Position numbers and translations under genes: made by a program. The notes beneath the pieces are model-generated. The model was not told the origin of the DNA, made no database searches, and saw only the letters and a program-made list of their open reading frames with translations. Positions 46,979 through 60,564 of a DNA stretch of 64,000 nucleotides are shown piece by piece. Every line of letters starts with the position of its first letter. Position 1 is the first letter of the stretch. Where the stretch lies: NCBI RefSeq assembly GCF_053078305.1, contig NZ_CP166879.1; one strand, written 5' to 3'.

Positions 46979-47052
46979 TTAGCGGGGGAAGCAAAATGCC
47001 TCCCCCGGTTGTACTCGCTAAAGAGTACGATAGCATATCATAAACGTGCGGA

Positions 47053-48990
47053 TCAGTAACGACGTCCCCATTCCGTGGCACTCATCAACGTCGGTTTATC
47101 CCCCATGAAATAGCGGTAGTAAGCGTCATAAGCCAGCACGTTCTTCACATAACCGCGCGTCTCGGAGAATGGAATACTCTCGACAAATGCCACTGCGTCG
47201 ATACGCCCGGCGCTGTTGCCAAGCCAGGTTCGCACCCGCCCTGGTCCGGCGTTATAAGCTGCTGAGGAGAAAATACGATTATTGCCAAACTGCTGATAAA
47301 CATATTGCAGGTAACTGGTGCCAATGTTGATATTCGTTTCCGGATCCAGCAATTGCCCAAGACTGCTATAACCGGGAATAGAGAACATCTTCACCGTATG
47401 GGTCGCTGTACCAGGCATAATCTGCATCAGGCCGCTGGCCCCTACCGGTGATTTCACTTTCGGATTCCAGGCGCTCTCCTGACGAGCAATCGCCATCGCA
47501 TAGCTTTGCGGGATCTCCTTACCGCTGGTGTAGCGTTTGAAAAGATCGTTGTAAGCCAGCGGGAATCGCTCTTCCAGATGATCCCACAGCTTCCCGGCGA
47601 TCGTTGCCTGAACGCTAAGATCCCACCATTGGTTGTTGAAAGCATACCGCGCCAGTTGAGCTTGCTCTGTTTTTGACTTGCTCTTCACCAGATTGGCCCA
47701 CTCGCTACGCGCGGTGTTATCGAGATTCCAGTACATCAACTCGCGCACGCGCGCCATCTCCGGCCCCTCAGTCAGGGCGCTGTCAACATTCTGCGGCGCT
47801 TTATCAATCTTCAGCTCATACTCTTCGCCGATGCGTTGTGCTGCAACCATCGGGTAGAAACCACGCTGTTGCATGAGTTGATGCAAAATCTCTTTCGCTT
47901 CAGCTTCACGTCCGCGTTCCAGCAATAAATCCGCCTGCCAGTAACGCCATTCATCTTTCTCTTTCGCCTCCATCGGCAAACGCGCCAGCCAGGTATTCAG
48001 GCCGCGACGATCACCGGTGCCAAGCGCCATTCGCACACGGCGTTCAATCAACGACGTGGATTGCGAGCGCATAATGGCGTCATCGCGCCATTTCGCCTGC
48101 TCGTCGGTGACATCGTTGCCCATCAAACGCCAGGCGACGATATCGCGCAGCTCCTGAATCTGATCTTCATTAAGCTGCTGCGCCTGGGCAAGCGATGGGA
48201 TCATCAGCCGTGCACTCTCAGCATCCTGCCGCGCCACACTGGCAAACGCCACCGCCGCCATTTGACGGGTAAAATCGGTCGCTCCGGTTGTACGCGCGAA
48301 GGTCAGTACCGTATTAGGGTTGTTCGCCAGTGAAATGATTGCCGAGGCGATAGTCTGGTAATCGGCAGGCATCTGCCCTGCCAGCACTGTTACCAGGCCA
48401 GTGTTACCCGCTTTCATCGCCAGACGGATACGCTCTAAATACGCCAGCGGATCTTGTTTACCTGACGCACGCCAGACACTAAATAACTTGTCACAGGCGT
48501 TAGGCTGGCTCTTGCCGGTTAGCCACAGCTCTTTCGCCCCTTGCCAGGCTTCTTCACTCTGCCCGGTGTTCCATTTCGCATAGTAGTAATTACATTGTGC
48601 TTCGGTAGCTCCGGGCTTTTCCGGGCTAAAGGCTAACAGGCCACGCCAGTCTTCACGCCGCGCCAGTTCATTGACGAAACGAGATTGCAGCGTGCGAGCG
48701 GGAGGAAGCGTGGGGTTAGCGCGAACAAAGTTAGTGACCGTCACCGCCGGTTGATTCATCAGGTCATCGGTGATCTGGCGGTATTCCAGGTAGGGATAAA
48801 GCGGATAATCCTTCAGTCCAGGCATCATTTGTTCGACCACATCCATTTGTCGATTATCCCAGGCCTGCTTGATTTGCGCGTAACGACTACGCTGCTCATC
48901 CAGTGAGTCGGCTCGCGCCACGCTGCTGACCGTCAGCAGACAGACACCGGCAGCCAACAGCCGCCAGGTAACTTGTTTGGCTTTTTCCAC
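47053..48990 (-). CDS. slt: Soluble lytic murein transglycosylase (Slt70)
   Basis: Track ORF 47053..49020; accepted 645-aa product starts at the internal codon translated V in VEKAKQVTWRLLAAG (non-ATG start inferred). Confidence 0.93.
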   Translation of the reverse strand: MEKAKQVTWRLLAAGVCLLTVSSVARADSLDEQRSRYAQIKQAWDNRQMDVVEQMMPGLKDYPLYPYLEYRQITDDLMNQPAVTVTNFVRANPTLPPARTLQSRFVNELARREDWRGLLAFSPEKPGATEAQCNYYYAKWNTGQSEEAWQGAKELWLTGKSQPNACDKLFSVWRASGKQDPLAYLERIRLAMKAGNTGLVTVLAGQMPADYQTIASAIISLANNPNTVLTFARTTGATDFTRQMAAVAFASVARQDAESARLMIPSLAQAQQLNEDQIQELRDIVAWRLMGNDVTDEQAKWRDDAIMRSQSTSLIERRVRMALGTGDRRGLNTWLARLPMEAKEKDEWRYWQADLLLERGREAEAKEILHQLMQQRGFYPMVAAQRIGEEYELKIDKAPQNVDSALTEGPEMARVRELMYWNLDNTARSEWANLVKSKSKTEQAQLARYAFNNQWWDLSVQATIAGKLWDHLEERFPLAYNDLFKRYTSGKEIPQSYAMAIARQESAWNPKVKSPVGASGLMQIMPGTATHTVKMFSIPGYSSLGQLLDPETNINIGTSYLQYVYQQFGNNRIFSSAAYNAGPGRVRTWLGNSAGRIDAVAFVESIPFSETRGYVKNVLAYDAYYRYFMGDKPTLMSATEWGRRY

Positions 48991-49200
48991 AAGCGCATCC
49001 TCTAAGTGTAAATACATCAATGCAGCGTCATGCCGCGTAATAGATTTATGCTAACCAGTCATTGCCGTTTACGCCACGTTACGGACACTTTTTTACTTTT
49101 ACTGCGAAGGTGATCGACCAACTGGGATTAGGCGGGGAAAAAGGCTACACTTCGCCTTTGAAAACTCATCATCACGATAAACATAGAGGCGAAGTCCAAC

Positions 49201-50868
49201 GTGGCTCAATTCGTTTATACCATGCATCGTGTCGGCAAAGTTGTTCCGCCGAAACGTCATATTTTGAAAAACATCTCTCTGAGTTTCTTCCCTGGGGCAA
49301 AAATTGGTGTCCTGGGTCTGAATGGCGCGGGTAAGTCCACCCTGCTGCGCATTATGGCGGGCATTGATAAAGACATCGAAGGTGAAGCGCGTCCGCAGCC
49401 AGACATCAAGATTGGTTATCTGCCGCAGGAACCGCAGCTGAACCCGGAACACACCGTGCGTGAGTCCATTGAAGAAGCGGTTTCAGAAGTGGTTAACGCC
49501 CTGAAACGCCTGGATGAAGTGTATGCGCTGTACGCCGATCCGGATGCCGATTTTGACAAGCTGGCCGCTGAACAAGGCCGTCTGGAAGAGATCATTCAGG
49601 CTCACGACGGTCATAATCTGAACGTACAGCTGGAGCGTGCGGCGGATGCGCTACGTCTGCCGGACTGGGACGCGAAAATCGCTAACCTCTCCGGTGGTGA
49701 GCGTCGTCGCGTGGCGTTGTGCCGCCTGCTGCTGGAAAAACCAGACATGCTGCTGCTCGACGAACCGACCAACCACCTGGATGCCGAATCCGTGGCCTGG
49801 CTGGAACGCTTCCTGCACGACTTCGAAGGCACCGTGGTGGCGATTACCCACGACCGTTACTTCCTCGATAACGTTGCGGGCTGGATCCTCGAACTTGACC
49901 GCGGTGAAGGTATTCCGTGGGAAGGTAACTACTCCTCCTGGCTGGAGCAGAAAGATCAGCGTCTGGCGCAGGAAGCTTCACAAGAAGCGGCGCGTCGTAA
50001 GTCGATCGAGAAAGAGCTGGAGTGGGTACGTCAGGGAACTAAAGGCCGCCAGTCGAAAGGTAAAGCACGTCTGGCACGCTTTGAAGAGCTGAACAGCACC
50101 GAATACCAGAAACGTAACGAAACCAACGAACTGTTTATTCCACCTGGACCGCGTCTGGGCGATAAAGTGCTGGAAGTCAGCAACCTGCGTAAATCCTACG
50201 GCGATCGCCTGCTGATTGATGACCTGAGCTTCTCGATCCCGAAAGGGGCGATCGTCGGGATCATCGGTCCGAACGGCGCGGGTAAATCGACCCTGTTCCG
50301 TATGATCTCCGGTCAGGAACAGCCGGACAGCGGCACCATCACTTTGGGTGAAACGGTGAAACTGGCATCGGTTGATCAGTTCCGTGACTCAATGGATAAC
50401 AGCAAAACCGTTTGGGAAGAAGTTTCAGGCGGGCTGGATATTATGAAGATCGGCAACACCGAGATGCCAAGCCGCGCCTACGTTGGCCGCTTTAACTTTA
50501 AAGGGGTTGATCAGGGTAAACGCGTTGGTGAACTCTCCGGTGGTGAGCGCGGTCGTCTGCATCTGGCGAAGCTGCTGCAGGTTGGCGGCAACATGCTGCT
50601 GCTAGACGAACCAACCAACGACCTGGATATCGAAACCCTGCGCGCGCTGGAAAACGCCCTGCTGGAGTTCCCGGGCTGTGCGATGGTTATCTCGCACGAC
50701 CGTTGGTTCCTCGACCGTATCGCCACGCACATTCTGGATTACCAGGATGAAGGTAAAGTTGAGTTCTTCGAAGGTAACTTTACCGAGTACGAAGAGTACA
50801 AGAAACGCACGCTGGGCGCAGACGCGCTGGAGCCGAAGCGTATCAAGTACAAGCGTATTGCGAAGTAA
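49201..50868 (+). CDS. ettA: Energy-dependent translational throttle (ABC-F ATPase)
   Basis: 555-aa ORF with two ABC cassettes (GLNGAGKST, LSGGERRR; GPNGAGKST, LSGGERGR); recognised as EttA. Confidence 0.97.
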   Translation: MAQFVYTMHRVGKVVPPKRHILKNISLSFFPGAKIGVLGLNGAGKSTLLRIMAGIDKDIEGEARPQPDIKIGYLPQEPQLNPEHTVRESIEEAVSEVVNALKRLDEVYALYADPDADFDKLAAEQGRLEEIIQAHDGHNLNVQLERAADALRLPDWDAKIANLSGGERRRVALCRLLLEKPDMLLLDEPTNHLDAESVAWLERFLHDFEGTVVAITHDRYFLDNVAGWILELDRGEGIPWEGNYSSWLEQKDQRLAQEASQEAARRKSIEKELEWVRQGTKGRQSKGKARLARFEELNSTEYQKRNETNELFIPPGPRLGDKVLEVSNLRKSYGDRLLIDDLSFSIPKGAIVGIIGPNGAGKSTLFRMISGQEQPDSGTITLGETVKLASVDQFRDSMDNSKTVWEEVSGGLDIMKIGNTEMPSRAYVGRFNFKGVDQGKRVGELSGGERGRLHLAKLLQVGGNMLLLDEPTNDLDIETLRALENALLEFPGCAMVISHDRWFLDRIATHILDYQDEGKVEFFEGNFTEYEEYKKRTLGADALEPKRIKYKRIAK

Positions 50869-50871
50869 TGC

Positions 50872-50915
50872 GTAAAATGCCGGATGCGGCGCGCCAGCAC
50901 CGCATCCGGTATTAG
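50872..50915. repeat. REP-like palindrome
   Basis: GCCGGATGCGGCGCGCCAGCACCGCATCCGGTA inverted repeat after ettA stop. Confidence 0.55.
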
Positions 50916-51023
50916 TTAAATGATTAGTCCCCGGAAAAAGGCAGAATTTTCTTTTAGTGTATTAGCTCAGATGCGGACTGACATCTCAAATCAAGCGGGA
51001 ACTCATGATTCCCGCTTAACGTT

Positions 51024-51911
51024 CTATTCACCGCGCAGAATCTGGCGGAAATGGGAAACCAACGGACGTTGGTTGGCTTTATGCCAGGCTGCCCATAATT
51101 GCGTTGAATAATTCATCCACGGCAATTCACGTAATACCACCCCTTCCGGCGCATTATGACGCAGACTATGTTGAATTAAGGCCAGACCTAATCCCGCAGC
51201 GACCAGACCTAATGCCGTGAGGGGTTCACCCGCTTCCAGGCGAATATCAGGATTAAACCCGGCGTTAACACAGGCGGCGACAAAATGATCGCGAGAATGC
51301 GCATCGTCGTTATGAATCACCGCAATCCACTGCTCATCGCCAAGTTGTGACGCGACAAGGTTTTCCTCCTGCGCCAGAGGATGATTTTGCGGTAAGGCCA
51401 ACAACATTCGATCATCCAGAACCTGAATATATTCCAGATCCTGCTCGCTGTCGGTGGGCGGCGTATCGACCAGAGAAAAATCGAGACTGCGCTGGCGCAG
51501 GCCTTCAATCTGGGTAGCCGGTGGTTGGCTGTAAAGTGCGATATGCACATTCGGACGCGATACACGTAACGTACGTAGCGCCGTAGAAAGCACACCGGAA
51601 TGCATGGCGTTTTCGATATAGCCAATACACAAGCCACCATCTTCCCCCCGTCCCAGGCGTTTGCCTAACGACTCCAGGCGGTTGGCGTGTGTCAGCAACG
51701 AACGTGTTTCGGCAAGGAATGTCTGTCCATCAGCGGTCAGGCGAATGCGCTGCTGATTACGCTCAAACAGCGTCAGCCCCAGTCGTTCTTCCAGTTGTGC
51801 AATCTGGCGGCTCAGCGGCGATTGCGAGATATGTAATCGCTCGGCTGCGCGTCCCACGTGCTCTTCTTCTGCGACCACCACGAAGTACTTCAGTTGGCGT
51901 AAATCAATCAT
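51024..51911 (-). CDS. LysR-family transcriptional regulator
   Basis: Track ORF 51024..52004; probable start at internal ATG giving MIDLRQLKYFVVVAEEEHVGRAAERLHISQSPLSRQIAQLE (classic LysR HTH); divergent from the oxidoreductase genes. Confidence 0.85.
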   Translation of the reverse strand: MIDLRQLKYFVVVAEEEHVGRAAERLHISQSPLSRQIAQLEERLGLTLFERNQQRIRLTADGQTFLAETRSLLTHANRLESLGKRLGRGEDGGLCIGYIENAMHSGVLSTALRTLRVSRPNVHIALYSQPPATQIEGLRQRSLDFSLVDTPPTDSEQDLEYIQVLDDRMLLALPQNHPLAQEENLVASQLGDEQWIAVIHNDDAHSRDHFVAACVNAGFNPDIRLEAGEPLTALGLVAAGLGLALIQHSLRHNAPEGVVLRELPWMNYSTQLWAAWHKANQRPLVSHFRQILRGE

Positions 51912-52044
51912 GTTAGACCTCAAAGGACTTAAGTCAGACGAATTATGTCCTATCAAGTCACAACCTCGCAAGGTATTGTGATCCACGTCACAGGGCGATA
52001 GCAAAAAAACGCCCTAACCCAAACCGAATAATTGAGGACATCTT

Positions 52045-53055
52045 ATGAGCATTAAAAATTTACTCCCCGGCAAAATTGGCTTAGGCGGCGCACCACTTGG
52101 CAACATGTTCCGTGCCATTCCGGAAGAAGAGGCCCACGCCACCGTGAGCGAAGCCTGGAACCTGGGTGTGCGTTACTTTGATACCGCGCCGCTGTACGGC
52201 TCTGGCCTTTCTGAAATCCGCATGGGTGAAGCGCTGTCTCAGTATCCACGCGATGAATACGTTCTGAGTAGCAAAGTCGGTCGCATCATGCTGGACGAAA
52301 TGGAAGATCCGGCAAAACGGGATTTCGGTGAAAAAGGTGGCCTGTTCGAACACGGCCTGAAAAACAAAATTCTGAATGACTACTCTGCTGACGCCACTCT
52401 GCGCTCGATTGAAGACAGCCTGAAACGCCTGAAAACAGACCGTCTGGATATTGTCTGGATCCACGACCCGGCGCAGGACTTCTACGGTGACAGCTGGCTG
52501 GAGCAGTTCAACATTGCCCGTACCGGTGCATTTCGTGCGCTGACGCGTTTGCGTGACGAAGGTGTGATTAAAGCCTGGGGACTGGGTGTGAACCGCGTCG
52601 AACCTTGCGAACTGACGCTGGCGCTGGACGAACCGAAGCCGGATGCGTTCCTGCTGGCGGGGCGTTATTCCCTGCTGGATCACGAACGTGCGCTGCAACG
52701 CCTGATGCCAGAAGCACTGGAACAGAACGTGGATATCGTTGTGGGCGGTCCATACAGCTCTGGCGTACTGGCAGGCGGCGAGCACTTTGAATATCAGAAA
52801 GCCTCTGCGGCCATCCAGCAGAAAGTGGCGCAAATTAACGCCATTGCCACACGTTTCAATGTGAACGTTAAAGCGGCTGCGCTGCAGTTCGCGCTGGCAA
52901 ACCCGGCCGTTGCAGCGGTTATTCCTGGCTCCAGCCGTCCTGGTCGTATGGCAGAAGATCTGGCTGCACTGAATGCGCCTGTTCCGGCTGAATTCTGGGC
53001 AGAAATGCGCCGTCAAAATCTGGTTGCGGAAAACGCTCCGCTGCCGACCCGTTAA
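52045..53055 (+). CDS. Aldo-keto reductase family oxidoreductase
   Basis: 336-aa ORF with AKR-like GVRYFDTAPLYG and DIVWIHDP motifs; GAGGA ribosome-binding site upstream. Confidence 0.85.
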   Translation: MSIKNLLPGKIGLGGAPLGNMFRAIPEEEAHATVSEAWNLGVRYFDTAPLYGSGLSEIRMGEALSQYPRDEYVLSSKVGRIMLDEMEDPAKRDFGEKGGLFEHGLKNKILNDYSADATLRSIEDSLKRLKTDRLDIVWIHDPAQDFYGDSWLEQFNIARTGAFRALTRLRDEGVIKAWGLGVNRVEPCELTLALDEPKPDAFLLAGRYSLLDHERALQRLMPEALEQNVDIVVGGPYSSGVLAGGEHFEYQKASAAIQQKVAQINAIATRFNVNVKAAALQFALANPAVAAVIPGSSRPGRMAEDLAALNAPVPAEFWAEMRRQNLVAENAPLPTR

Positions 53056-53074
53056 TCAACCAGGTGAGAAAACG

Positions 53075-53872
53075 ATGAAACTGGATCTGACAGGTAAAGT
53101 CGCGGTGGTCAGCGGCTCAACCTCCGGCATTGGGCAGGGTATCGCCGCCGGACTGGCAAAAGCAGGCGCAACGGTGGTTGTCGTCGGCCGTAAACAGAGC
53201 GGCGTTGATGACGCCATGGCTGCGATTGCGGCACAAACTCCCACAGCGTCACTGCGCGGCGTGGTGGCCGATCTCAGCACCGAAGACGGCGTGGCTGCGC
53301 TGATCGCTGCAGTCCCAACGGCTGATGTGCTGGTCAATAATCTGGGCATTTTTAACGATAAAGATTTCTTTAGCGTTCCGGATGATGAGTGGATGCACTT
53401 CTATAACGTCAACGTCCTCTCCGGCGTTCGTCTGGCGCGTCACTATGCGCCAGGCATGACGGAACAGGGCTGGGGGCGGATTATCTTTGTCTCGTCCGAA
53501 TCCGGCGTGGCAATCCCTGGCGACATGATCAACTACGGCGTCACCAAAGCCGCGAATCTGGCGGTTTCTCATGGTCTGGCGAAACGACTGGCGGGGACCG
53601 GTGTGACCGTCAACGCCATTCTGCCAGGGCCAACCTTTACCGATGGCCTGAAAGAGATGCTGGCGGATGCCGCTGCACAATCGGGACGCAGTGCGCGTGA
53701 ACAGGCCGATGAATTTGTTAAAACCTCGCGTCCGAGCTCCATCATCCAGCGTGCGGCAGATGTGGAAGAAGTGGCGAATCTGGCGGTTTATCTCGCGTCA
53801 CCGCTTTCCTCGGCAACCACAGGGGCAGCCCTGCGCGTCGATGGCGGCGTCGTCGACACCCTGACAATGTAA
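53075..53872 (+). CDS. Short-chain dehydrogenase/reductase (SDR) family oxidoreductase
   Basis: Internal start MKLDLTGKVAVVSGSTSGIGQGIA (TGxxxGxG) within track ORF 52973..53872; YGVTKAA catalytic motif; ribosome-binding site present. Confidence 0.85.
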   Translation: MKLDLTGKVAVVSGSTSGIGQGIAAGLAKAGATVVVVGRKQSGVDDAMAAIAAQTPTASLRGVVADLSTEDGVAALIAAVPTADVLVNNLGIFNDKDFFSVPDDEWMHFYNVNVLSGVRLARHYAPGMTEQGWGRIIFVSSESGVAIPGDMINYGVTKAANLAVSHGLAKRLAGTGVTVNAILPGPTFTDGLKEMLADAAAQSGRSAREQADEFVKTSRPSSIIQRAADVEEVANLAVYLASPLSSATTGAALRVDGGVVDTLTM

Positions 53873-53897
53873 CCCTATAAATTAAGAGAAAATTATC

Positions 53898-54314
53898 ATG
53901 GCTAAAACAACTGTATCGATCGAAATTCCGGCTTCTGGCGACGCCGTATGGCAATTGATGGGCGGCTTTGATGCGCTGCCAGACTGGCTACCATTCATCC
54001 CGAAAAGCGTGGTGACAGAAGGCGGTCGCGTTCGTTCGCTGACAACCTCTGACGGCGGCACTGTGGTTGAACGTCTGGAAGCGTTTGATAACCGTCAACG
54101 CAGTTATACCTATTCCATTATTCAGGCACCGTTCCCGGTGGTGGATTACCTCTCCACCATTACCGTTCATGAAACCGCCGACAGCCAGGTTTCCCGTGTG
54201 GAATGGTTCGGTGAATTCACCCCGGTGAATGTGACGAACGAAGAGGCCGAGGCGCTGTTTACCGGCATCTATCGGGATGGACTCAAGGCGCTTAAGGACA
54301 ACTTTGTTGCCTGA
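53898..54314 (+). CDS. Small START/Bet v1-like (SRPBCC-type) protein of unknown function
   Basis: 138-aa ORF 25 nt after the SDR gene; family assignment is tentative. Confidence 0.6.
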   Translation: MAKTTVSIEIPASGDAVWQLMGGFDALPDWLPFIPKSVVTEGGRVRSLTTSDGGTVVERLEAFDNRQRSYTYSIIQAPFPVVDYLSTITVHETADSQVSRVEWFGEFTPVNVTNEEAEALFTGIYRDGLKALKDNFVA

Positions 54315-54471
54315 TGCGATCGACAGGCGTCGGCACGTCCGGCGTCTGATTATTAACAAAAACAGAATAGTCTATTGTCATTTGTATCATTTATGTTATC
54401 AGACAGCAGGCGTATTCTCTCCCCATCGCGTTAATAAACGCCAAACAATTAAGACACTCTGGAATATAAAC

Positions 54472-54684
54472 ATGAAAACGATCATCGCAATTTTTACCGC
54501 TTCTCTTTTCTCTGTCGCGGCGTTTAACGCATCGGCGCAAAGCGTGACAGCAACCGGTACAACACTGGATTCCGCTGAAGCGGTTATTGCGCAGAAAGCG
54601 AAAGAGATGAACGCCTCTGAATACAAAATTACCAGCGCTCGCATGGGCAATACCGTCACCATGAGTGCCGAACTGTATAAATAA
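54472..54684 (+). CDS. Small secreted stress-type protein (YdgH/BhsA/McbA-like, DUF1471)
   Basis: Internal start MKTIIAIFTASLFSVAAFNASAQ (signal peptide) then ...SEYKITSARMGNTVTMSAELYK, characteristic of the family; 70 aa. Confidence 0.7.
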   Translation: MKTIIAIFTASLFSVAAFNASAQSVTATGTTLDSAEAVIAQKAKEMNASEYKITSARMGNTVTMSAELYK

Positions 54685-54732
54685 TCGCGCGAGGAACCCA
54701 TTACGTAATTTGCTAAATATGCGCTGAATGCG

Positions 54733-55039
54733 TTGCCATTAATAAACCGTATTGTACTGCCACCGATGACGCGTTCCCGCGCCGGTGCGGGTGACGTTGC
54801 GATTGGCATGATGGCGGAGTATTACGCGCAGCGCGCCAGTGCTGGACTTATCATCAGCGAAGGTACGCAAATCAGCAGAATCGCTGCGCATAATTTTCCA
54901 CGGCACGCTGATTTACTCCGGTAAATACACCAAAGCGCGCGCCGAACAGGCGCTGGCTAACGGCTGGTCGGATCTGATTGGTTTTGGTCGTCCGTATAGT
55001 GCCAGGAGCGGAAGTTGTCGAAGGGTCATAAAGAGCTAA
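54733..55039 (+). pseudogene. Remnant of an Old Yellow Enzyme-type NADH:flavin oxidoreductase (NemA-like), internally deleted and frameshifted
   Basis: Frame 1 (54733..54924) MPLINRIVLPPMTRSRAG...MAEYYAQRASAGLIISEGTQIS resembles the OYE N-terminus; a second frame (54839..55039) ...GKYTKARAEQALANGWSDLIGFGRPY resembles the OYE C-terminus; the ~300 central residues are missing. Confidence 0.6.
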
Positions 55040-55315
55040 ACCCCGGCATTGCTTCTCAGCTGTTTATAGCCGTTCCTGGGTACAAGTGAGCACTAAGGCG
55101 AGCATTGTTATAATCACCAACCAATCACTAGTTGTGTACAAATTCTGACCGCAAAGCGAACTCTCCGGCATGCAGGTTGGAGAAAGCACAGTTGACCTAA
55201 AATGCTCCTCCAGCCAGAAACAAAAGGTGGCCGATAATTCGAAAGCAAAAAAAGATAAAGCAGGGAATGTGCCCGCAAATTCTTAATCATATAGCCAAAC
55301 CGAGCAGCGTATGAT

Positions 55316-55345
55316 ATCCAGCCCTGATACGGGCTGGATATTAAA
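55316..55345. terminator. Perfect palindromic hairpin
   Basis: ATATCCAGCCC-TGATAC-GGGCTGGATAT followed by TAAATTTTCG; just 3' of the lipoprotein gene stop and at the end of an ORF-free ~300 bp. Confidence 0.4.
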
Positions 55346-55355
55346 TTTTCGCCGG

Positions 55356-55823
55356 TCAGTTATCGCAATGACCTGGCACTGCTAACTTAACTTCAGGTTT
55401 AGAAACGACGCGGATACCTTCGCTTTCGGATACCTGTTCAAGTCCAGCCCCACCAACAAAAACGCCCATTTTGATGTACTGGCGAACAAAGTAGTTTTTC
55501 CCGGACGTGACATTGAGTGTCAGATTATTAGGTGAAAACTCGGATTCAGTTCCCAGCGTATGTGGTTGGCTGGTCGATATTTGCTGATAGAAAAAGACTC
55601 TGTCAGCCGTTTCACCAAGACAACGGCCGTCAAGATAAACATCCTTTTTTAACGCTTTACCAACAAAGCTGTCTCTGTAAACGTATAGACCGGCTTTGCC
55701 ATTTTCCGGGACCGGGAAAGACTTAGCTGTCTCGTTTTCAGCATTACTGCCCAGAGGAACCGACGCACACCCCCCCAGAAGCACTGAGGAAATAATGACT
55801 GCGCCAAATAAAATTTTATTCAT
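55356..55823 (-). CDS. Putative lipoprotein
   Basis: 155-aa ORF with lipobox (VLLGGCAS) after signal peptide. Confidence 0.75.
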   Translation of the reverse strand: MNKILFGAVIISSVLLGGCASVPLGSNAENETAKSFPVPENGKAGLYVYRDSFVGKALKKDVYLDGRCLGETADRVFFYQQISTSQPHTLGTESEFSPNNLTLNVTSGKNYFVRQYIKMGVFVGGAGLEQVSESEGIRVVSKPEVKLAVPGHCDN

Positions 55824-56161
55824 TGAATTCTCATGGAGTTAAGAAAATCGCCAAATGAGAATAAACTTATTTTACACTTATGTCATTAAAGGAGGCATTG
55901 CTTCACAACAACATCAATGTTCATCCCGGAACCGTCCACTTCCGCTTCTCGCTCAAAACGGACTGTCATATTTGATTGCATTCTGGCTACGCAACCGGTC
56001 GGTTGGAGTATGAAGTTGCTCACGAATAGCCTTAGCATCCGCAATTTCGTAGCGGGTCACCCGTACAGGTTCTTTCTAATCTCGACAGCCTCTTCCAGAG
56101 AGGTTTTCAACTCATCAAAAAAACTCATTTTATACCTCGCCTTTGAGCAGTTTCATCACGG

Positions 56162-57394
56162 TTATCTCTGCTCCCCCATCATCTCCCGCACCAGCTCCAC
56201 GCAGCGCAGGAAACGGCTGTCGTAATCTTCCTCTTCAACCCGCACAAATTCGATATTGTTCTCTTCCAGCATCTCCACCAGCAGATTCTGGAACTCTTTA
56301 CGATCCACCGAACTGCCGAGGCTGCGTAAACCATCCGCCACCCACGGCGTGTTGTTCTCCAGCAGGATCACCAGATCGAAACGGTATTCATCAATCAGCG
56401 CCTGCACGAACGGATGTTCCCGCCCTTCGTACTTTTTGCAGAACGCCTGAGTGGTGACAAAATCGGTATCGATAAATGCCACTTTATTGGCATATTTCAC
56501 CGCAAAATCAATGTATTGAGCGTGGCCCAGCGCGATTTTATCGTAGTCAGAATACTGCAATGCGATCTCATCACCGCCGAGGTGTGAAAAGACATAATCG
56601 CGGCCATATTCCCACGCACTGGTGGTGTTGAAGATATTGGCAAGTTTGTTTACCAGGGTGGATTTACCGCTCGACTCGCCGCCAAGGATCGCCACGGTAC
56701 GCACAAAAAACGGCTTCACTTCGGTAGGAATATATTCCCAGTAGCGGAACGGGTTTTCGCGGATCTGCGCACCGCTGATACTCATAAAGGTACGTTTCGG
56801 ATCGACCAGCACCGTCTCGATCCCCAGATGTTCCATATACTGTGGCGCATCGGCTTCTTCCGAGGTGTAGATCAGATCCGGCTGGATCCCTTTTTCAGCC
56901 ATAAACTTTTTGATACCGTTGCTCCACACATCCCAGCCGTGCGGATACGGCTCCATGCCCTCTTCGTTGAAAGCATGAATGCGAATATTTTTCTGATATT
57001 TAAAAGTTTGCAATAACCAGCGCAGACGATCCGGCACGGTCGGCTGCTGCGACATGGCACTGTCTTCGAACAACGCGCGGTCACGGGTATCGTCAAAACC
57101 CATAATGATATGCAGCTCGTCAACCTGGCTACAGGCGCGCTGGATAAGGTAGATATGTCCGGTATGCAGTGGGTAGAACTTACCGAATACGACACCGATC
57201 GTTTTCTTCTGCCGGGGAAACTCAAGCCCCAAAAAACGGTGCAACGCCTCCAGCTTTTGCGCGCTGGGGCTTTTAATTTTGGCATTCAGTAACTGGCTTA
57301 AATACCCTTTGGTCATACCGCTGGCATCAGCTACCTGCTGTAGCGTGCAGCCCTGTTGCTTGATGGCAGTTTTCAGGTAATCAAATGACGACAT
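56162..57394 (-). CDS. nadR: Trifunctional NAD biosynthesis/regulator protein NadR
   Basis: Track ORF 56162..57415; accepted 410-aa NadR starts at MSSFDYLKTAIKQQGCTLQQVADASGMTKGYLSQL. Confidence 0.95.
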   Translation of the reverse strand: MSSFDYLKTAIKQQGCTLQQVADASGMTKGYLSQLLNAKIKSPSAQKLEALHRFLGLEFPRQKKTIGVVFGKFYPLHTGHIYLIQRACSQVDELHIIMGFDDTRDRALFEDSAMSQQPTVPDRLRWLLQTFKYQKNIRIHAFNEEGMEPYPHGWDVWSNGIKKFMAEKGIQPDLIYTSEEADAPQYMEHLGIETVLVDPKRTFMSISGAQIRENPFRYWEYIPTEVKPFFVRTVAILGGESSGKSTLVNKLANIFNTTSAWEYGRDYVFSHLGGDEIALQYSDYDKIALGHAQYIDFAVKYANKVAFIDTDFVTTQAFCKKYEGREHPFVQALIDEYRFDLVILLENNTPWVADGLRSLGSSVDRKEFQNLLVEMLEENNIEFVRVEEEDYDSRFLRCVELVREMMGEQR

Positions 57395-57414
57395 ATCTCC
57401 CTCCGTATTTCTCA

Positions 57415-58797
57415 TTATAAGTCGTCGAACACGCTAAGCGCGTCGGAGAGTTTTTTAACGCCAAAAATCTGCATCCCTTCCGGCGCTTTTTTCGGTACGT
57501 TAGCCGCCGGAACAATCGCCCGACGAAAACCGTGTTTCGCCGCTTCAGAGATTCGTTCCTGACCGCTGGGCACCGGGCGGATCTCCCCTGCCAGCCCGAC
57601 TTCACCAAACACCACCAGATCCTGCGGTAGCGGTCTGTCACGCAGGCTGGAAACCATCGCCAGCAGTAACGCTAAGTCGGCGCTGGTTTCGGTTACCTTC
57701 ACGCCGCCGACCACGTTCACAAACACATCCTGATCGGCCATTTGCAGACCACCGTGACGGTGCAAGACAGCCAGCAGGATTGCCAGACGGTTTTGTTCCA
57801 GCCCCACTGCCACGCGGCGCGGATTCGCCATCATCGAGTGATCGACCAGCGCCTGGATCTCCACCAGCAGTGGACGCGTTCCTTCCCATACCACCATCAC
57901 TGAACTACCAGAGGTCACTTCATCGCCACGGCTTAAAAAGATTGCCGAAGGATTGCTGACTTCACGCAGCCCCTGTTCGGTCATCGCGAAGACGCCCAGC
58001 TCATTCACCGCGCCGAAGCGGTTTTTATGGCTGCGCAAGGTGCGAAAACGGGAGTCGGCATCGCCATCCAAAAGCACCGAACAGTCGATACAGTGTTCCA
58101 GCACTTTCGGGCCAGCCAGCGAACCATCTTTGGTTACGTGCCCCACCATGACAATCGCCACACCGCGCGTTTTGGCGAAGCGTGTCAAATAAGCCGCCGT
58201 TTCACGCACCTGCGCCACGCTACCAGGCGATGACTGTACATCCGCCATATGCATCACCTGGATCGAGTCAATTACCATCAGCTTCGGTTGCTCTTCTTCG
58301 GCAATCAGGCAGATCTGCTCGATGCTGGTTTCCGACAACATATTGAGATTGTCAGTCGGCAGGCCAAGGCGATGAGCGCGCATTGCCACCTGTTGCAGCG
58401 ACTCTTCGCCGGTGACATACAGCGTTTTCATCTGCTGCGCCAGTTTGCACAGCGTTTGCAGCAACAGCGTGGATTTCCCCGCACCAGGGTTACCGCCAAT
58501 CAGAATGGCACTTCCTGGCACCACGCCGCCGCCTAGTACGCGGTCGAACTCTTTAAATCCGGTGGAAAAACGCGGCAGCTCTTCAAGGCTGATATCGGAG
58601 AGTTTCTGGACTTTTGCCACCCCGGCGCTACCGGCATAGCCGCTGAGACGCTCGTTACGCGCCACCGTTGGCGACGCAGCAAGACGCACCTCGGTGATGG
58701 TGTTCCAGGCATGACAGGCACTGCACTGCCCCTGCCAGCGCGGATAATCGGCCCCGCATTCATTACAAACAAAGGCGCGTTTTGGAGCTTTTGCCAC
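57415..58797 (-). CDS. radA: DNA repair protein RadA (Sms)
   Basis: Track ORF 57415..58845; accepted 460-aa product starts at the internal codon translated V in VAKAPKRAFVCNECGADYPRWQGQC (non-ATG start inferred); Walker A GNPGAGKST. Confidence 0.94.
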   Translation of the reverse strand: MAKAPKRAFVCNECGADYPRWQGQCSACHAWNTITEVRLAASPTVARNERLSGYAGSAGVAKVQKLSDISLEELPRFSTGFKEFDRVLGGGVVPGSAILIGGNPGAGKSTLLLQTLCKLAQQMKTLYVTGEESLQQVAMRAHRLGLPTDNLNMLSETSIEQICLIAEEEQPKLMVIDSIQVMHMADVQSSPGSVAQVRETAAYLTRFAKTRGVAIVMVGHVTKDGSLAGPKVLEHCIDCSVLLDGDADSRFRTLRSHKNRFGAVNELGVFAMTEQGLREVSNPSAIFLSRGDEVTSGSSVMVVWEGTRPLLVEIQALVDHSMMANPRRVAVGLEQNRLAILLAVLHRHGGLQMADQDVFVNVVGGVKVTETSADLALLLAMVSSLRDRPLPQDLVVFGEVGLAGEIRPVPSGQERISEAAKHGFRRAIVPAANVPKKAPEGMQIFGVKKLSDALSVFDDL

Positions 58798-58845
58798 GGT
58801 GTACCTCGTTAATGCTGTGCCGCCCGCAGGATGGCGGGCGAGCAA

Positions 58846-59814
58846 TTACTTCTGATTCAGGCTGCCTGAGAGGATGCAGAATACCCCCATCAGGTCAGCG
58901 TGACGGATGGTGACTTCCGCCTTTTCATTCACTTTTGGCTTGGCATGGTAGGCAATCCCCAGCCCTGCCGCTTTGATCATCGGCAGGTCATTGGCTCCAT
59001 CGCCAATCGCCACGGTCTGCGCCAGCGGGATTTCATACTCCTGCGCGAGGCGAGTCAGAGTTTTCGCTTTGTACTGCGCGTCTACGATGTCGCCGATCAC
59101 ATTGCCGGTAAATTTACCGTCCATGATCTCCAGTTCATTGGCTACCACGGCTGTCAGGCGCAGCTTCTCGCGCAGGTATTCAGCAAAGAAAGTAAAGCCG
59201 CCGGAGGCAATCGCCACTTTCCAGCCCAGCGTTTCCAGCTTGAGCACCAGTTGCGTTAAGCCTGGCATCAGCGGCAGATTTTCACGCACCTGTTGCAGAA
59301 TATTGGCGTCAGCGCCTTTCAGCGTCGCCACGCGGCTGCGCAGGCTGGCGGTAAAATCGAGTTCGCCGCGCATCGCCCGTTCGGTTACTTCCGCCACCAT
59401 CTCGCCCGTTCCGGCCAGTTTGGCAATTTCATCAATACATTCAATCTGGATGGCGGTGGAATCCATGTCCATCACCAGCAAACCCGGCGTGCGCAGGTGC
59501 GGGATTTTCCCCAGCGGGGCGACATCCAGCTGCGCTTCGTGGGCCAGGCGTGTAGCCCGTGCGGTGAGTGAACCTGCCAGACGAATCACCTGATAATCTT
59601 CCACGCACCAGGCGGCAACAATCACCATCGCCGCACCCAGTTTGCTCTGGTATTGGGTCAGACGTTGTTTATCCAGCCCACGACCATACAGCAGCCAGCC
59701 GCTACGACCTGCGTGGTAATCCAGTGGCATCACTTCATCACCACTTAATGAAAGAGGCAGACCCGGCCATAAAGAGACATCTTCAGGCAGGTCGCACCAG
59801 GTAATGTTAGGCAT
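58846..59814 (-). CDS. serB: Phosphoserine phosphatase
   Basis: Track ORF 58846..59901; accepted 322-aa SerB starts at internal MPNITWCDLPEDVSLW; HAD motif LLVMDMDST. Confidence 0.95.
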   Translation of the reverse strand: MPNITWCDLPEDVSLWPGLPLSLSGDEVMPLDYHAGRSGWLLYGRGLDKQRLTQYQSKLGAAMVIVAAWCVEDYQVIRLAGSLTARATRLAHEAQLDVAPLGKIPHLRTPGLLVMDMDSTAIQIECIDEIAKLAGTGEMVAEVTERAMRGELDFTASLRSRVATLKGADANILQQVRENLPLMPGLTQLVLKLETLGWKVAIASGGFTFFAEYLREKLRLTAVVANELEIMDGKFTGNVIGDIVDAQYKAKTLTRLAQEYEIPLAQTVAIGDGANDLPMIKAAGLGIAYHAKPKVNEKAEVTIRHADLMGVFCILSGSLNQK

Positions 59815-59919
59815 TAAGGCTCCTGTAAAATCGTTCGAAGCAGGGAAAATAACGCATGAGGCTACCTTGTATCCATTGCTTCTGGCAACATTAAGTCTCA
59901 AATTTTCAAAGGGTGGAAG

Positions 59920-60564
59920 ATGGCTCGCACAAAACTGAAATTCCGGCTACATCGGGCAGTGATTGTCCTGTTCTGTCTTGCCTTGTTAGTGGCACTGATG
60001 CAGGGGGCGTCATGGTTTAGTCAAAACCACCAGCGACAGCGTAATCCACAGCTGGAAGAACTGGCCCGCACCCTGGCGCGTCAGGTGACGCTGAACGTTG
60101 CACCGCTGATGCGTACCGACTCACCGGATGAAAAACGCATTCAGGCGATCCTCGATCAGTTAACGGATGAAAGCCGTATCCTCGACGCGGGTGTGTATGA
60201 CGAACAAGGCGATCTTATCGCACGTTCTGGCGAAAGCGTCGAAGTGCGCGATCGGCTGGCGCTCGACGGTAAAAAAGCAGGCGGCTATTTTAACCAGCAG
60301 ATTGTCGAGCCAATTGCGGGTAAAAACGGACCGCTCGGCTATCTGCGCCTGACGCTCGACACCCATACGCTCGCCACCGAAGCCCAACAGGTGGATAACA
60401 CCACTAACATTTTACGCCTGATGTTGCTGCTCTCACTGGCAATCGGCGTAGTGCTGACCCGCACGCTGCTACAGGGTAAACGCACCCGCTGGCAGCAATC
60501 GCCCTTCCTGTTAACCGCCAGCAAACCGGTGCCGGAAGAGGAAGAAAGCGAGAAAAAAGAGTGA
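59920..60564 (+). CDS. ytjB: Membrane protein YtjB (Smp)
   Basis: 214-aa ORF MARTKLKFRLHRAVIVLFCLALLVALMQ... at the K-12 ytjB position. Confidence 0.92.
   Translation: MARTKLKFRLHRAVIVLFCLALLVALMQGASWFSQNHQRQRNPQLEELARTLARQVTLNVAPLMRTDSPDEKRIQAILDQLTDESRILDAGVYDEQGDLIARSGESVEVRDRLALDGKKAGGYFNQQIVEPIAGKNGPLGYLRLTLDTHTLATEAQQVDNTTNILRLMLLLSLAIGVVLTRTLLQGKRTRWQQSPFLLTASKPVPEEEESEKKE

Follow-up and report, generated by a model that had tools for sequence, protein, structure and literature searches.

The window analysed here is a stretch of 64,000 nucleotides from contig NZ_CP166879.1 (NCBI RefSeq assembly GCF_053078305.1), and the subject is the segment of about 5 kb that separates ettA from nadR in this and some other Escherichia coli genomes. 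The segment begins with a gene for a LysR-type transcriptional regulator (LTTR) on the - strand, divergent from genes on the + strand for an aldo-keto reductase (AKR), a short-chain dehydrogenase/reductase (SDR), an SRPBCC protein and a DUF1471 protein. A remnant of an Old Yellow Enzyme (OYE) gene follows, then a stretch poor in open reading frames (ORFs) and a lipoprotein gene on the - strand. This gene content and its coordinates were given correctly in an initial annotation made from the sequence alone, and the ORF calls agree with the annotations by the Prokaryotic Genome Annotation Pipeline (PGAP) of near-identical genomes. Compared across phyla, the universal core of the module is AKR together with SRPBCC, usually with the LysR regulator, and SDR is a frequent third enzyme.

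The lysR gene (51024-51911, - strand) is intact and encodes 295 amino acids with the Pfam domains HTH_1 and LysR_substrate. Between its start and that of the akr gene lies a divergent regulatory region of 133 bp (51912-52044), recognised by its conservation and by a promoter-like site. The akr gene (52045-53055, + strand) is also intact and encodes 336 amino acids (Pfam Aldo_ket_red). It is followed on the same strand by sdr (53075-53872), encoding a classical SDR of 265 amino acids (Pfam adh_short), and by srpbcc (53898-54314), encoding a Bet v1-like protein of 138 amino acids of the SRPBCC/Polyketide_cyc2 family (PF10604). The last gene of the series is duf1471 (54472-54684, + strand), which encodes a YhcN/BhsA-like secreted protein of 70 amino acids with a signal peptide (Pfam YdgH_BhsA-like). 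The gaps measure 19 bp between akr and sdr, 25 bp between sdr and srpbcc and 157 bp between srpbcc and duf1471.

Within E. coli the locus is polymorphic. The core module (51024-54684) was found in 482 of the 5,426 complete RefSeq E. coli genomes (about 9%), with 98.2-100% identity. It is single-copy and chromosomal in all 482 carriers, never plasmid-borne, and in 479 of them the matching stretch runs on without a break into ettA and nadR.

Conservation of the module and of its regulatory region

The module is not restricted to E. coli. SRPBCC homologues with 80-91% identity are found in Citrobacter, Enterobacter, Klebsiella, Yokenella, Trabulsiella and Yersinia, and in K. pneumoniae the homologue is on record in thousands of assemblies. 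The order lysR<->akr-sdr-srpbcc(-duf1471) is unchanged at four unrelated chromosomal sites in four enterobacterial genera. The site adjoins crl-frsA-gpt in Klebsiella, fimbrial genes in Citrobacter, a contact-dependent inhibition (CDI) toxin locus in Enterobacter, whose module has no DUF1471 gene, and yicC-rph in Yersinia. An intact OYE gene stands after the Citrobacter module, and OYE genes are also found nearby in three non-enteric loci.

Outside the Enterobacterales, proteins sharing 73-78% identity with the AKR come from Pseudomonas, Janthinobacterium, Paraburkholderia, Streptomyces, Micromonospora and Gottfriedia. A cross-phylum survey, in which the AKR alignment was searched against one genome per species, gave 80 loci with 68-76% AKR identity, including loci of Bacillales, Dyadobacter, Caulobacter and Sorangium. 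An identity of 68-76% between E. coli and Streptomyces, Bacillales, Pseudomonas, Dyadobacter or Sorangium is a level met more often in core housekeeping proteins than in aldo-keto reductases. The partner genes in these loci were scored by tblastn of the window proteins. Of the 80 loci, 57 have a LysR homologue (60-73% identity), which in 53 of them is the direct divergent neighbour of the AKR gene. An SRPBCC homologue (50-67% identity) occurs in 60, mostly directly downstream of the AKR or SDR gene, and the SDR homologue (68-74% identity) in 25, mostly in Pseudomonas and mostly in the order AKR-SDR-SRPBCC. LysR, AKR and SRPBCC are linked in Pseudomonas, Burkholderiales and Streptomyces, while the Bacillales loci keep AKR-SRPBCC with a gap of 2-40 nt between the two genes. 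No common regulator, such as an electrophile-sensing one of the MarR or HxlR type, recurs near this Firmicutes pair. All-against-all ORF clustering in 86 loci gave no other recurrent neighbour, transporters and hydrolases included. Twelve of the more distant AKR loci, in Caulobacter, Asticcacaulis, Dyadobacter, Sorangium, Rheinheimera and others, have neither LysR nor SRPBCC nor SDR. In one locus, that of Marininema mesophilum (L081), the AKR-SRPBCC pair apparently stands in tandem duplicate (4138-5565 and 6001-7143); the second SRPBCC copy matched over 45 residues only and may be truncated.

Distant metagenomic relatives of SRPBCC (54-56% identity) also sit after an AKR of 336-342 amino acids. 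Two database proteins (P0128 and P0150) resemble AKR::SRPBCC fusions, which, coming from poor contigs, are a weak hint only. Four longer SRPBCC relatives (P0137, P0141, P0174 and P0206) were rejected as informative fusions, being secreted tandem duplications. These proteins are of secreted or lipoprotein type with two tandem SRPBCC domains, like the periplasmic MxaD-like proteins, and their branch differs from that of the cytoplasmic AKR partner.

The spacer between lysR and akr is strongly constrained. About 90 nt of it are nearly invariant across five enterobacterial genera, and its first 92 nt are 84-93% identical among enterics, compared with 53-77% at the third codon positions of AKR and 95-98% at codon positions 1+2. 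The difference between the codon positions indicates strong purifying selection on AKR, and the LysR, AKR, SDR and SRPBCC genes, all four of which are intact in the window, appear to be under purifying selection. In 58 sequences from Enterobacterales, Pseudomonas, Burkholderiales, Xanthomonadales, Streptomyces and Saccharopolyspora, the first ~65 nt counted from the lysR start codon align free of gaps, with the consensus AGACCT-N4-GGACTYAAGT-N6-A.ATTATGTCTTGGACRGTCT-N12-CTAnnnT. The conserved blocks of the region are GGACTTAAGT (51925-51934), ATTATGTCC and the dyad TCACAA-N12-TTGTGA (51958-51981). This dyad, a putative operator, is found in enterics, and Streptomyces has the dyad CCAAG-N5-CTTGG.

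Most parts of the consensus can be read as expression signals, and individual promoter or terminator sites were used only where conservation backs them. AGACCT(C), which on the + strand is AGACCTC at 51915-51921, would be the complement of the Shine-Dalgarno sequence of the - strand gene lysR. ATTATG is probably the complement of the lysR -10 element CATAAT, which is paired with the -35 element TTGCGA 18 nt away; this promoter-like site (TTGCGA-18-CATAAT, 51971 to 51942, - strand) was found by promoter scan. TTGGAC and CTAnnnT would then be the -35 and -10 elements of akr, represented in enterics by TATCAA (51951-51956) and TATTGT (51974-51979). The weak enteric -35 element fits dependence on an activator. 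A candidate akr Shine-Dalgarno sequence, GAGGA, is found at 52033-52037 on the + strand. The predicted promoters of lysR and akr overlap back to back, an arrangement that is common among LysR systems.

The downstream limit of the regulated unit is indicated by several features. Directly after srpbcc lies a GC-rich, terminator-like hairpin (54325-54347, + strand) with a 9-bp stem followed by GAUUAUU, identified by RNA folding and cross-genus comparison. The RNA of 54310-54400 folds with -26.4 kcal/mol (z = -2.98). Citrobacter retains the hairpin stem despite changes on both sides of it, and at the equivalent place in Klebsiella there is a GC-rich hairpin of its own, with TTTTAT after it. The hairpin in the window fails the T-run rule of the terminator scan. 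DUF1471 is absent from every locus outside Enterobacterales as well as from that of Enterobacter, and the Citrobacter copy is coupled to the gene for OYE. Taken together, the hairpin, the patchy occurrence of DUF1471 and its coupling to OYE in Citrobacter suggest that the LysR-controlled unit most likely comprises akr-sdr-srpbcc only and that DUF1471 probably forms a separate transcription unit. Of the LysR-regulated four-gene module proposed in the initial annotation, the LysR gene divergent to a syntenic oxidoreductase unit is retained, with a region between them that is conserved above synonymous sites, and DUF1471 falls outside the unit.

The results bear on the explanation that the genes are mere neighbours, that is, a random accessory oxidoreductase patch with separate promoters, in which LysR regulates something else or nothing. 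Promoter and terminator scans that do not rise above chance would agree with this, as would the presence of DUF1471, the OYE remnant and the DUF2846 lipoprotein cassette (described below) as independent passengers. Against it stands the finding that lysR, akr and srpbcc, joined by sdr in a subset, stay linked and in order across genera and phyla and at unrelated sites. The intergenic gaps of 19 and 25 bp and the strong constraint on the divergent promoter region also speak against it. The explanation is considered very improbable, and unrelated neighbours appear to be essentially excluded by the synteny.

Protein families and proposed function

The regulator clearly belongs to the LTTR family. 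PF00126 and PF03466 are found on the identical product, and 54 NCBIfam LTTR models match residues 2-292. It was rejected as a member of the named types, with scores of 223 bits for AlsR (cut-off 430) and 207 for PRK09986 (XapR-like, cut-off 290), its best NCBIfam hits, and 162 for HcaR (cut-off 356). Among solved structures, an itaconate-responsive regulator comes closest, at an E-value of only 1e-36.

The AKR has the PF00248 domain and the catalytic tetrad D46, Y51, K77 and H140, which is invariant in the AKR alignment and places the protein in the AKR superfamily. Its nearest solved relatives are plant L-galactose dehydrogenases, but the similarity is weak (E 2e-29), with the best stretch in the N-terminal 70 residues. 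Homologues carry the automatic name 'D-threo-aldose 1-dehydrogenase' in JGI/NCBI sources and 'methylglyoxal reductase' in one source. Assignment as a YdjG-type methylglyoxal reductase was rejected, the score being 71.4 bits against the NF049922 cut-off of 550.

The SDR is of the classical type, with matches to PF00106 and PF13561 and with the motifs SGSTSGIG, NNLG, VSSESG and YGVTK read from the translation. The residues GRK after strand beta-2 suggest that it uses NADP(H). Its closest solved structure is 8G9M from Acinetobacter baumannii (E 9e-138), the natural substrate of which is stated as unknown (PMC10889901), and it resembles the NADPH-dependent L-sorbose reductase 3AI1 (PMC10889901).

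The SRPBCC protein matches PF10604 and is about 60% identical over residues 1-136 to 3CNW and 3F08, two proteins of the Bacillus cereus group without known function. The DUF1471 protein matches the family PF07338 and scores below the cut-offs of the named members BhsA, RclB and YhcN (for BhsA 31 against 90), and as judged from these scores it is a family member and not a named orthologue. No module protein reached a named equivalog cut-off in NCBIfam, and none of the six proteins of the segment had a PADLOC match to anti-phage defence.

Gene content, polymorphism, synteny, sequence conservation and the intact catalytic residues were observed directly. From these we infer regulation by LysR, the limits of the operon, the direction of the redox reaction and the class of substrate. 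The preferred reading, which is given about an even chance, is that akr-sdr-srpbcc constitutes a self-contained, LysR-activated, cytoplasmic NAD(P)H oxidoreductase unit that acts on a diffusible small molecule. LysR would bind the conserved region from 51912 to ~52004, where the predicted lysR and akr promoters overlap, and would there repress its own gene. With a small-molecule inducer bound, it would activate akr-sdr-srpbcc, transcription ending at the hairpin 54325-54347. AKR with its D-Y-K-H tetrad and SDR with its S-Y-K site and probable use of NADP(H) would then perform NAD(P)(H)-dependent carbonyl/alcohol redox chemistry on the inducing compound. SRPBCC, as the obligate partner of AKR across phyla, probably binds the hydrophobic substrate or product, in a presenting, sequestering or accessory-catalyst role. 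DUF1471 would be a separately transcribed, periplasmic stress-type add-on, and the OYE gene of the window is dead.

The module is accompanied by no transporter and no additional pathway enzyme, so its substrate most likely enters by diffusion or is formed within the cell. The best guess for it is a reactive or hydrophobic carbonyl or a quinone-type compound, a choice to which the recurrent OYE genes nearby and the hydrophobic-ligand fold of SRPBCC incline. OYE belongs to a family of enone/quinone reductases, so that its position after the Citrobacter module and near three non-enteric loci fits the chemistry of unsaturated carbonyls. A detoxification role is plausible. The very high conservation of the AKR and SRPBCC core points to one specific substrate rather than to a broad-range detoxifier.

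Several observations weigh against the preferred reading. No clean T-N11-A LysR box can be assigned in the enterobacterial lysR-akr sequence. The numbers of promoter-like sites (7 against 5.0 ± 2.1) and terminator-like sites (9 against 6.4 ± 2.7) are within chance. Twelve of the 80 AKR loci lack any partner gene, and the evidence for an AKR::SRPBCC fusion rests on one metagenomic contig of 1,043 bp (P0128). Finally, the characterised proteins closest to the two enzymes act on sugars: AKR is nearest to L-galactose dehydrogenase and SDR to L-sorbose reductase, and these oxidoreductases fit sugar oxidation at least as well as detoxification.

The last point leads to a sugar or lactol catabolic or salvage unit, in which AKR would oxidise an aldose of the L-galactose, L-fucose or D-arabinose type to the lactone, SDR would interconvert ketose and polyol, and LysR would sense the sugar. 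Besides the solved relatives of AKR and the likeness of SDR to 3AI1 (PMC10889901), the database name D-threo-aldose 1-dehydrogenase agrees with such a unit, and in one distant AKR-SRPBCC locus the neighbouring genes encode a GH10 xylanase, a sugar transporter and a LacI regulator. The names, however, are automatic transfers and not assays, and the sugar-dehydrogenase similarity of AKR is the weak, mainly N-terminal one described above. Among the neighbours of the module in the 86 loci, genes for a transporter, lactonase, dehydratase or kinase do not recur. Furthermore, the pockets of SRPBCC proteins usually bind hydrophobic ligands. A sugar unit is regarded as unlikely.

The same small chance is allowed for a unit that binds and inactivates a specific hydrophobic plant or microbial signal or an antibiotic, with SRPBCC as a high-affinity binder and AKR and SDR reducing a key carbonyl, the outcome being resistance or signal quenching and not detoxification in general. 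The extreme cross-phylum conservation of regulator, enzyme, binder and predicted operator argues that a single defined ligand is recognised. The module is over-represented in groups that live in soil or with plants, such as Pseudomonas, Streptomyces, Burkholderiales, Bacillales, Klebsiella and Enterobacter, it works without a transporter, and SRPBCC has a weak family-level similarity to the PYR/PYL hormone receptors. This support is purely circumstantial, however, and the PYL similarity (E ~1e-3) reflects only the common fold family.

As an extension of the oxidoreductase unit that is preferred here, AKR and SRPBCC may, more speculatively than the unit itself, be the two halves of a specialised enzyme system that has a LysR sensor and a conserved operator to itself. 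Such a system would have spread through Proteobacteria, Actinobacteria and Firmicutes in the manner of a plug-in and would recognise one specific, widely met small molecule, for example a plant or microbial signal or toxin, and the Bet v1-fold protein would be an essential substrate-presenting or catalytic subunit of the AKR. We think this possible but doubtful. To our knowledge, a partnership in which a Bet v1-fold protein is a subunit of an aldo-keto reductase has not been described so far.

As an E. coli feature, this is an ordinary annotated accessory segment, without link to virulence, resistance or mobility. Every module gene is already in public databases under a generic name, and a LysR gene divergent to an oxidoreductase operon is a standard architecture. 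Full-text searches, which do not cover subscription journals, gave no study of the function of the module; all that they yielded was the structure paper on 8G9M and a Pseudomonas cluster without relation to it. The unit of regulator, AKR and SRPBCC belongs to the core genome of Klebsiella pneumoniae and occurs frequently in Pseudomonas, Streptomyces and Bacillus, and its conservation (AKR 68-76% and LysR 60-73% across phyla, with a gap-free operator region) is unusual for 'generic' oxidoreductases. The cross-phylum LysR-AKR-SRPBCC(-SDR) unit is a reasonable target for function discovery. It is compact and genetically tractable, and the akr promoter is an obvious reporter. The identity of inducer and substrate could assign a function to thousands of database entries, and the module could reveal the role of a Bet v1-fold partner for an aldo-keto reductase.

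Flanking sequence and the K-12 state

The genes slt (47053-49020, - strand) and ettA (49201-50868, + strand) precede the segment, and nadR (56162-57394, - strand) follows it; all three were taken from the ORF list and PGAP annotation, for slt that of near-identical genomes. The statement in the initial annotation that ettA and nadR are nearly adjacent in K-12 and that the segment is missing there was correct. In K-12 MG1655 the nadR-ettA spacing is 307 bp, and O157:H7 Sakai has an identical 307-bp spacer, across which a 55-codon ORF is annotated as 'transcriptional regulator' (ECs_5781).

BLASTN places the K-12 break points at 50893/50894 and 56024/56025, with 50600-50893 and 56025-56400 matching K-12. 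The 5,131 bp of the window between them (50894-56024) take the place of 135 bp of repetitive extragenic palindromic (REP) sequence in K-12. The initial annotation marked REP elements at the ettA side as a likely junction. The left junction is indeed inside a REP, falling in the loop of the hairpin, but the window has one REP hairpin there and not several. It lies just 3' of the ettA stop codon (50876-50913; inverted repeat I8 with 17-nt arms, 88% complementary). K-12 agrees with the window for the first 25 nt past ettA, after which it has a cluster of three REPs instead. This cluster, which resembles a bacterial interspersed mosaic element (BIME), makes up the K-12 nadR-ettA spacer together with codons 1 to ~36 of a nadS pseudogene, to which it is fused.

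The 128 bp between the REP and the lysR stop codon (50894-51021) are common to the E. coli carriers examined and absent at the Citrobacter locus; homology to C. farmeri begins only at 51022. Directly 3' of the lysR stop codon a strong hairpin, AAGCGGGAA-N7-TTCCCGCTT (50993-51017), was read directly from the letters; it may be the lysR terminator. A 63-codon ORF (50920-51111) overlaps lysR and is probably spurious. An Rfam scan of 50700-56300 at E<=1 for known RNA elements gave only a chance miRNA match, which leaves both the regulatory region and the ORF-poor stretch without one.

At the other end, directly upstream of nadR, lies a nadS pseudogene stub (55938-56130, - strand), which had been overlooked in the initial annotation. 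It belongs to the NadS family of helix-turn-helix (HTH) proteins, is truncated and frameshifted after codon 23, and matches positions 1-44 of 94 of the NadS profile (NCBIfam NF041265). PGAP annotates it in other strains as a partial nadS, and K-12 holds only the part from 56025 onward. The profile match spans the K-12 junction.

This stub bears on the direction of the change. In carriers the nadS-homologous sequence extends down to 55938 (~codon 65), while in K-12 it extends only to 56025 (~codon 36), where it is abutted by REP. As the K-12 stub is shorter than that of the carriers and fused to REP, the K-12 state can be derived from a carrier-like state by deletion; as the stub of the carriers is longer, the carrier state cannot be derived from K-12 by simple insertion. 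The K-12-type 'empty' site is probably a nested deletion and not an empty target. The polarity implied when the segment was called an insert is probably wrong, on account of the nadS codons (1 to ~36 in K-12, 1 to ~65 in carriers) and the lack of mobility genes, and for the same reasons a mobile island inserted into an empty K-12-type site was rejected as the simplest account.

Signs of mobility in general were also looked for. There are no integrase or transposase ORFs in the ORF list, no tRNA genes in a scan of 47000-60000 and no flanking direct repeats at the segment. The G+C content of the module is 52-58%, similar to that of the flanks, and only 55005-55937 is lower, at 44-46%. With these features and the absence from plasmids, the segment does not fit a mobile genomic island. 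Divergence among carriers reaches up to 1.8%, and together with an OYE deletion junction that the carriers compared have in common this suggests long residence in E. coli and later loss in most lineages.

The OYE deletion in question is found in the NemA-like OYE (alkene reductase) pseudogene (54703-55004, + strand), which was identified by tblastn and NCBIfam. The closest foreign DNA found is that of Citrobacter farmeri, which matches 51022-54876 at 88.7% identity and, after a gap of 686 bp in the Citrobacter sequence, 54877-55004. The remnant corresponds by tblastn to residues 3-59 (54709-54879) and ~287-330 (to 55004) of the 365-aa C. farmeri protein, in different frames, and to positions 17-66 and 288-336 of the NCBIfam profile. 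An intact OYE/NemA, with an Oxidored_FMN barrel of ~365 amino acids, was accordingly rejected, two fragments in two frames being a pseudogene. As judged from the alignment, the remnant arose through an internal deletion of 686 bp relative to the intact Citrobacter gene. The deletion junction is identical in three other E. coli carriers, as compared with Citrobacter or the window. In Citrobacter the intact 365-aa OYE gene begins 18 nt past DUF1471 and is followed by a GNAT gene.

Beyond 55004 the slot differs by strain. The window has a strain-variable cassette of 933 bp (55005-55937, 44-46% G+C), delimited by break points and composition, with a DUF2846 lipoprotein gene (55356-55823, - strand) that encodes 155 amino acids with the lipobox LLGGC (Pfam DUF2846, E 2.8e-23). 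Strain 1190 has a GNAT gene, GF60 a winged helix-turn-helix (wHTH) gene and a TauE/TSUP gene, and ETEC6335 nothing. The cassette 55005-55937 was not found in any of the 5,426 complete RefSeq E. coli genomes; the exact arrangement of the window with the cassette occurs in GenBank CP057673.1 and in draft assemblies. The 90% cluster of the DUF2846 protein has three members, and the sole DNA relative of its gene, 71.6% identical over the gene, is on an 8.6-kb non-mobilizable E. coli plasmid (NZ_CP074011.1 / CP057862.1). A short inverted repeat, AGCGGAAGT ... ACTTCCGCT, flanks the slot where it holds DUF2846 or TauE/TSUP and could mark a recombination site. In the window the core of this repeat lies within 31-nt arms that are 77% complementary (54990-55020 and 55933-55963). 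A degenerate form of the core is present at the boundaries of the GNAT cassette. A rough estimate of the chance of a 9-10-mer at both slot boundaries is ~1e-3. The best reading of the DUF2846 cassette and the nadS stub is that they would be unrelated passengers of a decaying, recombination-prone intergenic spot.

Comparison with known systems

The module is similar in layout to the classical systems in which a LysR gene is divergent from the operon that it regulates, such as BenM/CatM with ben/cat, AlsR with alsSD and HcaR with hca. They have in common HTH_1 together with the substrate-binding domain, the divergent order of the genes and a short intergenic region, here of 133 bp, with overlapping promoter-like elements and dyads. 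The LysR protein of the module is not an equivalog of any named regulator, and differs from these systems in that the regulator and the operator region are unusually conserved across phyla.

A second likeness is to the K-12 units for detoxification of electrophiles and carbonyls. These include nemRA-gloA with the OYE NemA, the aldo-keto reductases YdjG, DkgA and YghZ, and YqhC-yqhD-dkgA. The module resembles them in its NAD(P)H-dependent enzymes of the AKR, SDR and OYE types, in a dedicated local regulator and in the lack of a transporter. The likeness to nemRA-gloA lies in the NemA-family OYE gene that was once in the segment and is intact in Citrobacter. The AKR of the module is, however, neither YdjG (71 bits against 550) nor another named K-12 AKR, and the regulator is of LysR type whereas those of the K-12 units are of TetR (NemR) or AraC (YqhC) type. 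The obligate SRPBCC partner has no counterpart in the K-12 units.

For the individual proteins, the best neighbourhood of solved structures for AKR is the branch of D-threo-aldose 1-dehydrogenases and L-galactose dehydrogenases (8SCC, 7SMI and others). The AKR of the module is a weak, partial match to this branch, without neighbouring lactonase or dehydratase genes, and at most a putative member of it. Among structural-genomics proteins, SRPBCC has orthologue-level matches, with ~60% identity, in 3CNW ('XoxI', B. cereus) and 3F08 (B. thuringiensis), and SDR has one in the A. baumannii SDR 8G9M. The folds of SRPBCC and SDR can therefore be considered already solved.

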